Source of the DNA: a virus
Taxonomy: Duplodnaviria; Heunggongvirae; Uroviricota; Caudoviricetes
Length of the DNA: 45,417 nt
Strand: one strand, 5' to 3'
Virus record (IMG/VR): IMGVR_UViG_2706794697_000014
Below are positions 542-45,417 of the stretch, in pieces. Under the pieces are notes generated by a model that was given only the letters and a program-made list of their open reading frames with translations, ran no database searches and had not been told where the DNA came from. Position 1 is the first letter of the stretch. Each line of letters starts with the position of its first letter. A program made the position numbers and the translations under genes.

Positions 542-1579
542 TTAACGCTTATCCGCCACCAGTTTGAGCGCGTGTTCCAGCACATTAATGTCTGCACCCG
601 CTTTATGGGCATTTTCACTTAAATAACGCCGCCACTGCCGCGCGCCAGGAATACCCTGGAACAAGCCCAACATATGCCGGGTAATATGGCCGAGATACGT
701 CCCCTGGCTGAGTTCACGCTCAATGTACGGATACATGGCGCGCACTACCGCCACCGGATCGGCATCGGTATCCGAGGAACCAAAGATCTCCCGGTCTACC
801 GCCGCCAGAATACCCGGATTCTGATACGCCTCGCGCCCGACCATCACGCCATCCATATGTTGCAGGTGTGCTTTGGCCTCTTCCAGCGACTTGATACCAC
901 CGTTAATCGACATTGTCAGATGCGGAAAGTCACGCTTCAGTTGATACACACGCGGATAATCGAGTGGCGGGATTTCACGGTTTTCTTTCGGGCTTAACCC
1001 CGAAAGCCAGGCTTTACGTGCGTGGATGATAAACATCTCACACTCGCCTTTGCCGGAAACGGTGTTGATGAAATCGCAGAGAAATTCATAGCTGTCCTGG
1101 TCATCGATGCCAATACGCGTTTTCACCGTCACTGGAATCGACACCACATCGCGCATCGCTTTCACGCAGTCGGCAACCAGCTGCGCATTACCCATCAGAC
1201 ACGCACCAAACATGCCGTTCTGCACCCGGTCAGACGGGCAGCCGACATTCAGGTTGATCTCATCATATCCACGCGCTTCTGCCAGCTTCGCACACTGTGC
1301 CAGCGCCGCCGGATCGCTACCGCCGAGTTGCAACGCTACCGGATGTTCTTCTTCACTGTACGCCAGGTAATCACCTTTACCGTGAATAATCGCCCCTGTG
1401 GTCACCATTTCGGTATACAGCAACGTATTGCGGGAAAGCAGACGCAAGAAATAGCGGCAATGTCTGTCCGTCCAGTCGAGCATAGGAGCAATGCTAAACC
1501 GAGAACTCCAGTAAGCGCCAGTTTTTTCAGGCATCACGCTGGTTTGATTAGTTTTCTGTGTTTCAGGATTATCGTGCAT
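542..1579 (-). CDS. dusA: tRNA-dihydrouridine synthase A (host; 5' end adjoins prophage)
   Basis: 345-aa ORF with Dus/TIM-barrel sequence ([28 protein letters not shown]) recognised as E. coli DusA. Confidence 0.9.
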
Positions 1580-1611
1580 TTTTGAACATTTCAGGCTATT
1601 TTTCTCGCGTT

Positions 1612-1647
1612 AGGTTCCCGCACAGGTTCCCACGCTTTATGGGAACC
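1612..1647. promoter_or_regulatory. three rGGTTCCC repeats (two direct, one inverted) in the dusA-int divergent intergenic region
   Basis: aGGTTCCC at 1612-1619 and 1624-1631, inverted GGGAACC at 1641-1647, between divergent start codons. Confidence 0.3.
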
Positions 1648-1667
1648 CGAAATAACGAGGTCGTGTA

Positions 1668-2765
1668 ATGGCGTACTATAACATAGAGAAACGACTAAAA
1701 TCCGATGGCACACCACGCTATCGCTGTAATGTGATTATCAAAGAAAAAGGTGTTATCACTTACAGGGAAAGCAAAACATTCCCTAAACATGCTCATGCCA
1801 AAACATGGGGCGCACAGAAAGTGATGGAATTAGATCTATATGGCATTCCATCATCAAATGCTGTTGACGGACTTACAGTCCGTGACTTACTACACAAATA
1901 TTTAAATGACCCAAATGCCGGAGGTAAAGCAGGCCGTACTAAAAGATATGTGCTGGAACTGCTTATGGATAGTGACATCTCCGCGATCAAACTATCTGAA
2001 CTGACAGAAAATGACGTAATTGAACATTGCAGGCTAAGAAACAACGCTGGTGCAGGCCCAGCAACAGTCAGCCACGATGTTAGTTATCTTGGCAGTGTTC
2101 TGGATGCGGCAAAACCTGTATACGGAATCAATTACACATCAAACCCGGCGAAAAGCGCTCGTCCATATCTACTTAAACTCGGTTTGATTGGTAAATCAAA
2201 CCGTCGTAATCGTAGACCAGCATCTGATGAACTGAACATGCTCATTGAAGGCCTTCAACAACGATCTACTCATAAATGCTCAAAAATTCCGTTCGTTGAT
2301 ATCCTCAAATTTTCTGTGTGGTCCTGTATGCGAATCGGAGAAGTATGCCGGTTACGATGGGAAGATCTCGACCAGGAACAAAAATCTATACTAGTAAGAG
2401 ACAGGAAAGATCCACGTAAAAAGGAAGGCAACCATATGAAAGTTGCCTTGCTTGGGGAAGCCTGGGATATCGTCCAGCGACAACCCAAAAAATCAGAATT
2501 CATTTTTCCATATAACAGCACTTCTGTTACCGCAGGATTTCAGAGGGTAAGAAGCAAATTAGGTATTAAAGATCTGAGATACCATGATTTGCGTAGAGAA
2601 GGGGCAAGTCGCTTATTTGAGGCTGGTTTTAGTATTGAGGAAGTCGCTCAGGTTACAGGGCATCGTTCATTAAACGTGCTATGGCAGGTATATACCGAAC
2701 TGTATCCGAAATCTTTACATAATCGTTTTGAAGAACTCCAAAGGAGCAGAAATAAGACCTCTTGA
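1668..2765 (+). CDS. int: tyrosine-type phage integrase (dusA-associated)
   Basis: 365-aa ORF, GAGG RBS 8-11 nt upstream; C-terminal catalytic region (HDLRREGASRLFEAGFSIEEVAQVTGHRS) typical of tyrosine recombinases; divergent from dusA 5' end. Confidence 0.9.
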   Translation: MAYYNIEKRLKSDGTPRYRCNVIIKEKGVITYRESKTFPKHAHAKTWGAQKVMELDLYGIPSSNAVDGLTVRDLLHKYLNDPNAGGKAGRTKRYVLELLMDSDISAIKLSELTENDVIEHCRLRNNAGAGPATVSHDVSYLGSVLDAAKPVYGINYTSNPAKSARPYLLKLGLIGKSNRRNRRPASDELNMLIEGLQQRSTHKCSKIPFVDILKFSVWSCMRIGEVCRLRWEDLDQEQKSILVRDRKDPRKKEGNHMKVALLGEAWDIVQRQPKKSEFIFPYNSTSVTAGFQRVRSKLGIKDLRYHDLRREGASRLFEAGFSIEEVAQVTGHRSLNVLWQVYTELYPKSLHNRFEELQRSRNKTS

Positions 2766-2825: not shown

Positions 2826-3074
2826 ATGCGTATTGAAATCTGCATAGCCAAAGAAAAAATGACTAAAATGCCAACCGGTGCTGTGGATGCGTTAAAGGAA
2901 GAATTAACCCGACGCATCAGTAAACGTTATGACGATGTAGAAGTGATCGTAAAAGCCACCAGCAACGATGGCCTTTCTGTTACGCGCACCGCTGATAAAG
3001 ATTCAGCTAAAACTTTTGTTCAGGAGACTCTGAAAGATACCTGGGAGTCTGCTGACGAGTGGTTTGTTCATTAA
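2826..3074 (+). CDS. DinI-like damage-inducible protein
   Basis: 82-aa product [10 protein letters not shown]...[16 protein letters not shown] resembles DinI/MsgA family (C-terminal TWESADxWF); preceded by a LexA box. Confidence 0.8.
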
Positions 3075-3140: not shown

Positions 3141-3277
3141 GGGATGGGGCAGGTTTTTCCTCTTGCGCATGCAAGGGCGGCTCTGATAATGAACAGTAAT
3201 ATTTTACTGTTGAGCTTATGCTCACTGATCCTGCCGGGCAGGATGTTCAACGGTTCCAATATATCCTGCCCCTTCCG
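3141..3277 (+). ncRNA. candidate structured non-coding RNA upstream of the RT module (retron msr-msd-like or DRT-type ncRNA)
   Basis: 13-nt inverted repeats GGGATGGGGCAGG (3141-3153) and CCTGCCCCTTCC (3265-3276, 12/13 complementary) flank three internal hairpins: CTTGC-GCAT-GCAAG (3162-3175), AACAGTAA-TATT-TTACTGTT (3192-3211), perfect palindrome ATCCTGCCGGGCAGGAT (3228-3244); no ORF. Confidence 0.3.
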
Positions 3278-3296: not shown

Positions 3297-3848
3297 ATGC
3301 ATGACAATATTTGGTTTACATATAAAGCACGTATCCAAGCGCACCATCGACTAGAATGGCTTGAAAAACACTCTCAATTTATCCTCGTTTGGTATGCTAT
3401 ATTGAGTGCGGTACTTTCAATTGTAACGTTGCGATTTCCAAAGGTTCTAGGAGATAATACAGATGTCGTTGCGGCGATACTTTCAGTGGCTCTACTGGGT
3501 ATTTCTCTGATCGTATCTAACCTAGATTTTCGTGGTCGAGCAATAGCCATGAGAAGGAATTATATTGCACTACAGCGACTCTATTTTGACATTACCACCA
3601 GTCAACAGTTATCTCTTGAACAGAAAGAAAAATATTTTAATTTGCTCAATGAGGTTGAGAATCACCGTGACATAGATGATAAAATTTCAAGGGTAACTCA
3701 AGTTGGACTTAAGACGAGGATCCCCACACAAAAAGAAAAAATAATTGTTATTTTATGGATATTACTTCGAATATTTATTACTGCCGCACTTTATATACTC
3801 CCATTAATATATCTTTGGATTGACTATGACTGCAAGCAGAATTTTTAA
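3297..3848 (+). CDS. small multi-pass membrane protein, putative effector partner of the RT
   Basis: 183-aa ORF, AGGA RBS; hydrophobic segments FILVWYAILSAVLSIVTL, VVAAILSVALLGISLIVSNL, IIVILWILLRIFITAALYILPLIYLWI; AT-rich; overlaps RT start by 23 nt. Confidence 0.7.
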   Translation: MHDNIWFTYKARIQAHHRLEWLEKHSQFILVWYAILSAVLSIVTLRFPKVLGDNTDVVAAILSVALLGISLIVSNLDFRGRAIAMRRNYIALQRLYFDITTSQQLSLEQKEKYFNLLNEVENHRDIDDKISRVTQVGLKTRIPTQKEKIIVILWILLRIFITAALYILPLIYLWIDYDCKQNF

Positions 3849-5196
3849 AAAGTCATTCTCGAAAAAAAATCTTCTAAAAGTATACTCTGAAAAAATCAAA
3901 GAATCAGGAGCGATTGGCATAGATCGGATTCGCCCATCAAAACTTGATTTGACAATAAAAAATGAGATCACTTTCATTTTTGAAAAGGTTAATTCTGGCA
4001 ATTACAAATTTACAGCATATAAAGAAAAATTAATATCTAAAGGCGCTAACTCTACACCCAGACAGATTTCCATACCAACTGCTAGGGACAGAATTACTCT
4101 TAGAGCTCTCTGTGAATGCCTTACGGAAATATATCCTAAGTCCAGATTAAAACTACCACATACAGTAATTGACTCATTGAAAGAAGCATTAAACAACAGT
4201 CTATATGCTGAATATGCAAAAATAGATCTTAAAAGTTTCTATCCTTCAATTGAACATAAATTGATAATTAATGCAATAAAAAATAAAATTAGAAAAAAAG
4301 AAATTAGACAGTTAATAACATCATCATTAATCGTGCCTACTGTAAGTGGAACCACAGGAAGCAAAGGTATCCCTAATAATACCAGAGGAGTACCTCAGGG
4401 ATTAGCGATATCAAACATTTTAGCTGAAATATCACTATCTAATTTCGATGATGAAATCAATAAAATGCATGACATATGGTACATGCGATACGTTGATGAC
4501 ATTCTTATTTTAACACCAAAATATCAAGCAACAAAAATAGCTTCTCATATCATTGATAAGCTTCAATCATTAAATTTAAACCCACATCCATTAAATGAAG
4601 AGAACTCAAAATCCAAAGTAGGCAGCTTGGATGAAAGTTTCAACTTTTTGGGCTACCACATAAAAAATCGAGAATTATTGATAAAACATGAGAGCATTCT
4701 TAGATTTGAGTCATCCTTAGCAAAAATTTTTACTGCATATAGACACGCTCTACTACAAGCTAAAAATAAGCGCGATAAAGAACGAGCTGTTGCATATTGT
4801 CAGTGGAAACTAAATCTTAGAATTACGGGATGTGTGTTTGAAGGTAAACGATTGGGATGGGTATCGTACTTCTCACAAATAACGTCAACAGCTCAACTTC
4901 GAGCTGTTAATCATACGATCAATAATCTTATCCGCCGATTCGGCCTTTCATCAGAAATAAAACCAAAGTCTTTGATTAAAACTTTCTATGAACTCCGCAG
5001 GGGTAGAGCGGAGACTTTTAAATACATACCTAACTTTGACAATCTACATATATCTCAGAAACGAGAAATTGTTTCTATGTGGATAGGGAAAGAGAATGAA
5101 AAAAAACTTAGCAATAGTGAAATAGAGAGAAAATTTAAATTTAAAATTGCGAAATCAGTAAAAGAGCTTGAAGAGGACATTTCAGGGATATCATAG
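3826..5196 (+). CDS. reverse transcriptase (defence-associated/retron-like; family unassigned)
   Basis: RT motifs in translation: ISIPTARDRITLRAL (motif 1-2), KIDLKSFYPSIEH (3), GVPQGLAISNILAEI (4), YMRYVDDILIL with YVDD catalytic box (5), FNFLGYHI (7), thumb-like GKRLGWVSYF; ATG at 3826 within track ORF 3820..5196. Confidence 0.85.
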   Translation: MTASRIFKKSFSKKNLLKVYSEKIKESGAIGIDRIRPSKLDLTIKNEITFIFEKVNSGNYKFTAYKEKLISKGANSTPRQISIPTARDRITLRALCECLTEIYPKSRLKLPHTVIDSLKEALNNSLYAEYAKIDLKSFYPSIEHKLIINAIKNKIRKKEIRQLITSSLIVPTVSGTTGSKGIPNNTRGVPQGLAISNILAEISLSNFDDEINKMHDIWYMRYVDDILILTPKYQATKIASHIIDKLQSLNLNPHPLNEENSKSKVGSLDESFNFLGYHIKNRELLIKHESILRFESSLAKIFTAYRHALLQAKNKRDKERAVAYCQWKLNLRITGCVFEGKRLGWVSYFSQITSTAQLRAVNHTINNLIRRFGLSSEIKPKSLIKTFYELRRGRAETFKYIPNFDNLHISQKREIVSMWIGKENEKKLSNSEIERKFKFKIAKSVKELEEDISGIS

Positions 5197-43886: not shown

Positions 43887-44168
43887 ATGAATACCTTGTT
43901 TTTACTGATGGCTGAATTCAATACCCCAAACATTGAACTCTCAGCAGTTAGTCAAAAATACTTTGGTATGAGTCCAGCCACAGCAGAAGCAAAAGCAAAC
44001 GCTTGTAAGTTGCCTGTACCTACATATCGCATCGGTACATCACAAAAAGCAAAACGTTGCATCAATATTCAGGATCTTGCGGAATACATAGACAAAAGAC
44101 GAGAAGAAGGACGTATCGAGTGGGAACAGGTCAGAACAGGCAAACAGAAGGGCAAAGAACATCACTAA
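43887..44168 (+). CDS. PrtN-like pyocin activator family protein
   Basis: 93-aa product MNTLFLLMAEFNTPNIELSAVSQKYFGMS... recalled as PrtN family; GGAGA RBS. Confidence 0.6.
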   Translation: MNTLFLLMAEFNTPNIELSAVSQKYFGMSPATAEAKANACKLPVPTYRIGTSQKAKRCINIQDLAEYIDKRREEGRIEWEQVRTGKQKGKEHH

Positions 44169-44428: not shown

Positions 44429-44848
44429 TTACTCATCATCAATAGATGATACGCAATATTTATTTTTAAATTTAAGGTTCTTTGGCGTAACTTCATCAGA
44501 TATATCAAAACCGTCCAGAATTCTATTGAATGTAGCTTCTGGCATATCATCATGAACGGAAATCTCACCCGATCGCTGCTTTCTAACCATGTTATCCACT
44601 CGCCAAATTATAGCTTCAGCGTAAACAACATAACTTGGATGCTTGATAAAGCGATGATCACCAGAATTCAAGACGCAAGACGGATCGTGGGGGACACCAT
44701 CCTTGATACTAGAAATATTAACAACTAAAACACAATAACAATCGTTAACGGGGTAATAAACAGGATCATTACAAATCACATGAAGATGATTGCATGGCCC
44801 AGTTGGGGCAAGCACAGTTCCTTTCCTGTATGGCTGATAATCCGTCAT
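44429..44848 (-). CDS. hypothetical protein, candidate toxin partner of Panacea-like gene
   Basis: 139-aa ORF overlapping upstream gene by 4 nt (ATGA coupling). Confidence 0.5.
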   Translation of the reverse strand: MTDYQPYRKGTVLAPTGPCNHLHVICNDPVYYPVNDCYCVLVVNISSIKDGVPHDPSCVLNSGDHRFIKHPSYVVYAEAIIWRVDNMVRKQRSGEISVHDDMPEATFNRILDGFDISDEVTPKNLKFKNKYCVSSIDDE

Positions 44849-45417
44849 GATAATTGCAAAGAAAATTCCTTAAGTTTCTGAGATTCTTCCATTTTGCCAA
44901 TTATACGATTAGCCTCATCCTCGCTTTTACCCTCACTGATCAGCATTTCTTTCAGGTCTATAGGCTTACGAGAATTGCCAGGATTGTGCCACTCTGGACA
45001 AACGCTTTCTAAATGCGTCATGTTTGCGAGATCAAATCGGTTCATATGCCCATACAGAGAATAGATTTCATCTAAAATCCGGATATCTGCACGGCTCAAC
45101 TCATCAAAGACCTCGTCTGCATCCATTTCCCTCGGATCTGAACGCAACAACACATCATGCCCGTTCGTCTCTATCAGGTTGTACCAGTAGTCACCAATAC
45201 CTTCAGCCTTACCACGAATCAAGTTCAGCGTATTCGACATGACTGGACCAAATTTCATAGAGTAAAGGCTATCTTCGCCGATCATCCTGCCATGCTTCAA
45301 AATCGACTTGCGGTTAGACAGATAGAGCAGCTTCATCAATTTCAGATATGCCATGCGCCCACCTCGCTTAAGAAGTAGGTATGCAGCCATTTGAGCTACT
45401 TTTTCTTCGCAAAACAT
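44845..45417 (-). CDS. Panacea/DUF4065 (SocA/GepA)-like protein; start coincides with window edge
   Basis: N-terminus MFCEEKVAQMAAYLLLKRGGRMAYLKLMKLLYLSNR resembles DUF4065 phage-associated proteins as recalled; ORF begins at the last codon of the window, so may be 5' truncated. Confidence 0.45.
   Translation of the reverse strand: MFCEEKVAQMAAYLLLKRGGRMAYLKLMKLLYLSNRKSILKHGRMIGEDSLYSMKFGPVMSNTLNLIRGKAEGIGDYWYNLIETNGHDVLLRSDPREMDADEVFDELSRADIRILDEIYSLYGHMNRFDLANMTHLESVCPEWHNPGNSRKPIDLKEMLISEGKSEDEANRIIGKMEESQKLKEFSLQLS

Follow-up and report, generated by a model that had tools for sequence, protein, structure and literature searches.

The window, as we call the whole stretch of 45,417 nucleotides analysed here, is E. 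coli DNA, and its positions 542-1667 are best explained as the int-proximal junction (attL) of a ~44-kb lambdoid prophage of the dusA-associated integrase (DAI) family. A short word repeated between dusA and int, and again on the other arm of the attachment site, is predicted to be the arm-type site of the integrase, a reading that we consider probable. For the explanation as a whole we estimate a probability of about 0.75. The window covers the prophage except for its last ~260 bp. In the alignment to the K-12 locus, bases 1-541 are identical to K-12 at 541 of 541 positions.

The window contains pspG (166-408) and dusA, which is an intact open reading frame of 345 aa on the minus strand (542-1579). 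The dusA-specific int gene (1668-2765, plus strand, 365 aa) encodes a tyrosine recombinase with an intact catalytic domain. It adjoins the 5' end of dusA in divergent orientation, and the open reading frame coordinates confirm the gap of 88 bp (1580-1667) between the two starts that the first-pass annotation had reported. That annotation had also named a family of integrases targeting the 5' end of dusA. The product of int belongs there: it is identical at 361 of 364 residues (99%) to the integrase of phage 1720a-02, and the family has been described (PMC4482086). A 93-aa homologue of RdfN, a protein of the PrtN family (Pfam PF11112, 3e-23), is encoded at 43887-44168 on the plus strand and is probably the recombination directionality factor (RDF) of the prophage. 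In the excised circle, its gene and int lie on opposite sides of attP. The arrangement of dusA and int is found in 734 of 5426 complete E. coli genomes, about 1 in 7. Because of the near identity of Int, the presence of the PrtN-type gene and this abundance, the junction is a further copy of a described system. The best match to the whole region 1-2800 is E. coli AR434 (NZ_CP029122), at 99.9%. The AR434 prophage is decayed, with tail and portal pseudogenes and ~20 kb left, and its junction, int and reverse transcriptase cargo are as in the window.

Genes near both ends of the prophage resemble defence and toxin-antitoxin cargo. Right beside int and the DinI-like gene at 2826-3074, the coding sequences of a SLATT-domain protein (3297-3848) and of a reverse transcriptase (3820-5196) overlap. 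PADLOC matches this pair (3297-5196) to RTasSLATT (1.5e-56) and RT_UG17 (1e-158), and by these models it is anti-phage defence cargo of the DRT class. At the far end, a Panacea-domain (SocA-like antitoxin) protein at 44845-45417 overlaps a 139-aa open reading frame (44429-44848) by 4 bp. The latter has no match in Pfam or PADLOC, and 44429-45417 is possibly a toxin-antitoxin pair. The window ends exactly at the start codon of the Panacea gene.

The crossover lies inside the coding sequence of dusA. The window matches the empty site of K-12 up to base 1483, with 98.9% nucleotide identity over 542-1483, and the alignment loses K-12 homology altogether ~4 bp past the dusA start codon, after base 1583. 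The far junction (attR) was taken from other genomes (E. coli CDF6) and not from the genome of the window itself. The last 5.4 kb of the window are 100% identical to CDF6. From dusA to the right-end genes, the CDF6 prophage exceeds the window by 234 bp, so the two genomes are closely related and different. The CDF6 far junction contains the host's own, displaced dusA 5' end, annotated as a partial dusA pseudogene, ~255 bp past the point that corresponds to the window end, and right of the core it agrees with K-12 at 399 of 400 bases. When attL of the window, attB of K-12 and attR of CDF6 are aligned, the sole block common to all three is TCGAGCAT, the attL core at 1476-1483, which spans DusA codons Met33-Leu34-Asp35. 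It agrees with the 7-base core placed within TCCAGTCGAGCATGGGAGC in the dusA part of the report on phage 1720a-02 (PMC6328086). Comparison with an uninterrupted dusA, the check that the first-pass annotation had proposed, thus fixes the core, and the matching repeat that it expected beyond the right end of the window is found in CDF6. Its estimate of roughly 1480-1620 for the core holds at the lower edge only. The core is not intergenic, and the intergenic repeats discussed below lie ~130-165 bp from the crossover.

In the reconstructed attP, the core sits inside a perfect inverted repeat, TCCTA-TCGAGCA-TAGGA. Since this palindrome flanks TCGAGCA, a 7-bp overlap at 1476-1482 between core-type half-sites is likely. 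The 'circular' record of phage Lys8385Vzw (MT225100) has the core duplicated in tandem, TCGAGCATTCGAGCAT (2301-2316 of the extracted locus). This is unlikely to be a true attP sequence, because the record was probably rebuilt from joined prophage ends. Another class of E. coli dusA loci, represented by UPEC-774U (NZ_CP049852), has a third dusA 5' end that diverges from both K-12 and the prophage exactly after TCGAGCAT. Here the dusA N-terminus is shorter, zur comes directly next and yjbL/yjbM are absent (4470-4720 of the extracted locus). This 5' end looks as if it had been left behind by an earlier event at that crossover point.

The prophage supplies a new 5' end to dusA. The body of the gene (542-1475, minus strand; codons 36-345 and the stop) is host-derived by comparison with K-12, and codons 1-32 (1484-1579, minus strand) come from the prophage, with 78 of 96 nucleotides (81%) identical to K-12. 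The reading frame is kept across the replacement. DusA differs from the K-12 protein at 10 amino acids, all in residues 3-30, and the 315 residues from position 31 onward are identical. Both the unfamiliar N-terminus and the replacement 5' end suspected by the first-pass annotation are borne out by these figures. Phages 1720a-02 and Lys8385Vzw carry the same dusA 5' segment as 1484-1579.

The divergent intergenic region (1580-1667, 88 bp) is the outer part of the int-proximal attP arm and shows no homology to the sequence that precedes dusA in K-12. It must carry the int signals as well as a dusA promoter supplied by the prophage. In IMEVchUSA3, an element of the DAI family, reporter fusion has demonstrated that the element supplies the dusA promoter (PMC8409611). 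A consensus scan of 1400-1800 found no promoter or terminator, and candidates for the int and dusA promoters picked by eye were too weak to report. Upstream of dusA in K-12, GGGGTACTATACCATA (3157-3172 of the extracted locus) matches the start of int, GGCGTACTATAACATA, at 14 of 16 nucleotides. We considered whether the K-12 'empty' site might itself derive from an element that has decayed and left only a remnant of the beginning of int, as GGGGTACTATACCATA lies at a similar distance from the core, but the idea found no support: the shuffle p was only 0.026, tblastn detected no int relic upstream of K-12 dusA, and the region had no phage match. The resemblance to the int start may be due to chance.

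The repeats stand between the two genes. GGTTCCC occurs at three places in the window, 1613-1619 and 1625-1631 on the plus strand and 1641-1647 on the minus strand. With the leading purine these become AGGTTCCC at 1612-1619, AGGTTCCC at 1624-1631 and GGGTTCCC at 1641-1648 (minus strand), and they are the only matches to RGGYTCCC in the window. The motif search therefore reproduces the two direct copies and one inverted copy of rGGTTCCC that had been noticed earlier in this gap. We refer to the extended copies as R1 (TAGGTTCCCG, 1611-1620, plus strand), R2 (CAGGTTCCCA, 1623-1632, plus strand), a direct copy 12 bp after R1, and R3 (1640-1649, minus strand; TGGGAACCCG on the plus strand), the inverted copy 19 bp before the int ATG. 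R1 is a candidate arm-type integrase site, and its position is conserved in the family. The total of GGTTCCC in the window is ordinary (shuffles give 4.2-4.6 per window), but the clustering is not: in simulations, three such matches fall within 37 bp with a probability of only 3.4e-5.

On the far arm of attP, just outside the window, there are two further copies. These are AGGTTCCCA and AGGCTCCCA, 11 bp apart and 58-69 bp from the core, and CDF6, phage Lys8385Vzw and the right end of phage 1720a-02 all have them. A search of 29 kb of CDF6 sequence for RGGYTCCC yielded these two far-arm copies and no others. Together with the three int-proximal copies, the element thus has five, and the attP map places them at about -69/-58, +129 (R1), +141 (R2) and +158 (R3, inverted) from the core, with the int ATG at +185. 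When the right end of 1720a-02 (at ~480) is compared with the CDF6-type sequence (at ~17611), the far-arm flanks are identical from exactly the first AGGTTCCC repeat onward, and the sequence outside that repeat is unrelated. A mosaic boundary thus falls at the proposed outer edge of attP. If the first far-arm repeat were the functional edge of attP, homology would be predicted to start exactly there, as is seen. A match with one mismatch to the IHF-like WATCAANNNNTTR is present at -40 in the attP of both E. coli and Yersinia phage YeP2, and the distant phages have no consistent site.

The positions of these sites are conserved in relatives, while their sequence changes with the integrase lineage. 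The layout was compared in seven phage attP regions. In YeP2, whose Int is 69% identical, AGCACCCC occurs at -68, -57, +129, +141 and +157 (inverted). A Phytobacter element with an 82% identical Int retains AGGTTCCC / AGGCTCCC / AGGTCCCC. The phages of Ralstonia, Pseudomonas (two), Burkholderia and Marinobacter, with Int identities of 32-36%, each have an 8-mer of their own. On the far arm it forms a pair with a spacing of 11 bp, at about -88/-77; just upstream of int, two to four copies of it, direct and inverted, fall between +99 and +192. In the attP region of Rhizobium phage RHph_Y3_1, a clear repeat set was not found. This phage has a dusA-type core, GTCCAGTCGATCATCGGCGC, and an Int of 35% identity (1277-1477 and 2673-2897 of the extracted locus). 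The small open reading frames scanned in its locus gave no PrtN-family match, and an HTH_17 (Xis-like) gene lies downstream of int.

The layout was also sought in 80 further integrase loci from diverse genomes, 72 of which had an identifiable start. In 47 of the 72, dusA is immediately upstream of int at the same distance. On 51 dusA-int junctions, a detector of the most-repeated 8-mer was dominated by AT-rich words and rose barely above shuffles, and it was replaced by a detector of tandem pairs. A tandem 9-mer pair (at least 8 of 9 positions matching) is present in 73% of the 51 junctions, compared with 6% of shuffles, and of the 37 positive loci, 21 have their first copy between +124 and +131.

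What reads the repeats is most probably Int. The first-pass annotation had offered arm sites for the integrase, Xis or IHF, or operators of the int promoter, and of these the comparative data best support, without proving, integrase arm sites. Int is favoured because the same word stands on both arms, at the outer limits of attP, and because the copies are arranged in tandem at about one helical turn and the protein carries an additional small domain at its N-terminus. Int is made up of three domains, the small N-terminal one being putatively of the beta-sheet-plus-helix type. This N-terminal domain had no significant match among the solved arm-binding domains, and its only Pfam hit was a sub-threshold Arm-DNA-bind_4 in two relatives. 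The main competitor is RdfN itself. The PrtN-family protein might coat the tandem sites, bend the arms and favour excision, which we think unlikely. Its homologues accompany the integrase in phages of E. coli, Yersinia, Ralstonia and Pseudomonas, and with RdfN and Int occurring together in nearly every element examined, their co-occurrence does not tell which of them binds. Phage 1720a-02 is uninformative here, because both its proteins are near-identical to those of the window. Tandem direct repeats about one helical turn apart would also suit binding of the Xis type; lambda Xis binds head-to-tail repeats with a spacing of about one turn. RHph_Y3_1, moreover, is the sole phage that lacks a PrtN-type gene next to int (having the HTH_17 gene instead), and it is also the one that lacks clear repeats. 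Known RDF sites, however, are confined to one arm, where they lie between the core and the arm-type sites, whereas here each arm has the motif, at its outer limit. A three-way comparison gives a weak hint in the same direction: E220 and YL4 share the motif TTGCTACA although their RdfN identity is the lowest of the trio (55%), and their identity in the Int N-terminal domain is the highest (63%), which points to Int as the reader of the motif.

Readings that involve neither protein fare worse. A phage repressor or host factor is unlikely because the elements that share the layout, which range from 14-kb Vibrio elements to 60-kb podophages, have only int and rdfN in common. Among dusA-associated elements, int is common to an otherwise diverse set (PMC4482086), as is rdfN (PMC8409611). 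The repeats might nevertheless be operators through which a phage or host regulator acts on the divergent int and dusA promoters, unrelated to recombination. They do lie inside the 88-bp divergent control region, and R2 and R3 form GGTTCCCA-N7-TGGGAACC, a perfect 8-bp inverted repeat that resembles a dimer operator. Such operators are very improbable, given that two further copies lie across attP, away from any int or dusA promoter, and that the same layout recurs in elements with unrelated regulatory modules that share only int and rdfN (PMC4482086); a host factor, in addition, would not switch its motif between elements of related hosts. Still less likely is that R2 and R3 pair as a hairpin in the RNA leader of int, or as a cruciform in the DNA, with compensatory lineage changes. 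Both members of the inverted pair do change from E. coli to YeP2 and Rosenbergiella, as such a structure would require. The predicted RNA fold of 1600-1670, however, is no more stable than shuffles (z -0.66), a terminator-like site is absent, R1 and the two far-arm copies fall outside any hairpin, and inverted copies differ in spacing and number from lineage to lineage. Chance, finally, is scarcely credible: the heptamer total is within expectation for the window, but the clustering, the two extra far-arm copies and the conservation of positions across the family all speak against it.

Strand exchange took place within TCGAGCA(T) at 1476-1483, in DusA codons 33-35, with phage DNA to the right of the core. 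It joined the phage-borne dusA' segment to the host gene body with the frame kept, and displaced the original dusA 5' end and its promoter by ~44 kb. With Int as the reader of the repeats, the complex may be pictured as follows. We infer that the small N-terminal domain of Int binds the arm-type sites, while the central and catalytic domains would bind the core. If the DNA were bent, possibly at the IHF-like site at -40, Int could span arm and core as lambda Int does, and RdfN, whose gene lies on the opposite side of attP from int, would turn the complex to excision. In the lysogen, dusA must be transcribed from within 1580-1667 or from further in, that is, from the region of R1-R3. As the int-proximal sites lie between the divergent int and dusA starts, Int occupancy may affect the transcription of both genes. 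This effect of Int binding on int and dusA expression is speculative, and the regulatory coupling is a conjecture because no promoter could be located.

The junction itself is nothing new, since the phage family has been published and the arrangement is widespread in E. coli genomes. The advance is a modest one: arm-type sites are an ordinary kind of feature, here mapped in a family in which, by the literature searched, they had not been mapped before. It provides a concrete and testable map of the full attachment site for the dusA integrase family, including the point where attP probably ends on one side, at the first far-arm repeat. Such a map can be useful for minimal attP-int integration vectors at the dusA site, for drawing prophage and island borders automatically and for predicting which elements cross-react. 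It also raises the question of whether Int binding influences how the rebuilt dusA is expressed in lysogens. In its most general form, the idea would be that all dusA-specific integrases use arms with a fixed set of five or more sites, that the int-proximal ones lie in the divergent int/dusA control region so that Int occupancy governs both recombination and expression, and that the unclassified N-terminal domain reads the site. We offer this generalization tentatively and regard it as doubtful. If it were true, bound Int would not only build the recombination complex but also, in lysogens, determine the expression of int and of a tRNA-modifying enzyme of the host. Recognition of the site would then depend on a few residues in an N-terminal domain not classified before, and its specificity would be predictable and open to re-engineering.

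Much of the system had been established earlier. The dusA-associated integrases owe their definition to Farrugia et al. (2015), who also described the semi-conserved 21-bp repeats of attL and attR and the replaced 5' end of dusA (PMC4482086). As far as its treatment of dusA is concerned, the report of Balasubramanian et al. (2019) describes integration of the lambdoid E. coli phage 1720a-02 100 bp into dusA, the 21-bp motif and the phage-borne dusA' open reading frame (PMC6328086). The same part of that report demonstrates dusA integration and excision experimentally, with excised circles in vivo (PMC6328086). Excision of a circle with restoration of the native dusA has also been shown for other members of the DAI family (PMC4482086). 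Durand et al. (2021) identified the PrtN-family RdfN as the excision factor of IMEVchUSA3 and reported that a DAI-family element gives dusA a working promoter and a new N-terminus (PMC8409611). No description of the arm layout was found in the literature searched, in which the 1720a-02 paper was covered for dusA only (PMC6328086). The words arm, IHF, excisionase and inverted repeat are absent from the text of the Farrugia paper (PMC4482086), as is the word arm from that of the Durand paper (PMC8409611), and the five-site arm layout is therefore additional to what these papers describe. Searches for literature with both dusA and arm-type returned general papers only, and those for dusA, attP and binding sites nothing relevant and new.

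The closest known systems are the related E. coli phages 1720a-02 (Phi-stx2dact; KF030445), Lys8385Vzw and mEp460. Phage 1720a-02 shares with the prophage the core, the dusA 5' segment and all five repeats, three of them int-proximal and two on the far arm, and its RdfN is 97% identical to that of the window. The cargo differs: there is no stx in the window, and the prophage carries the SLATT protein and UG17 reverse transcriptase next to int. As throughout the DAI family, int is divergent from the 5' end of dusA, the crossover lies in the conserved PM(L/M)DW codons, a replacement 5' end and promoter are supplied, and a PrtN-type RDF is encoded across attP from int; nothing contradicts membership in this family. 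SXT/R391 integrates at the 5' end of another gene, prfC, and differs from the dusA system in integrase family, target gene and RDF. In relation to the lambda-type heterobivalent integrases (lambda, HK022, P2/186, HP1, L5 and Tn916), similarity of the protein is limited to the catalytic domain, the N-terminal domain is not demonstrably homologous, one arm holds 96 bp of host-enzyme coding sequence, and the RDF is PrtN-type instead of Xis- or Cox-type. Like these integrases, however, the dusA system combines non-core repeats on both arms of attP and tandem spacing of about one turn with a three-domain protein, a separate small RDF and a possible IHF-like site between the core and the near arm sites.
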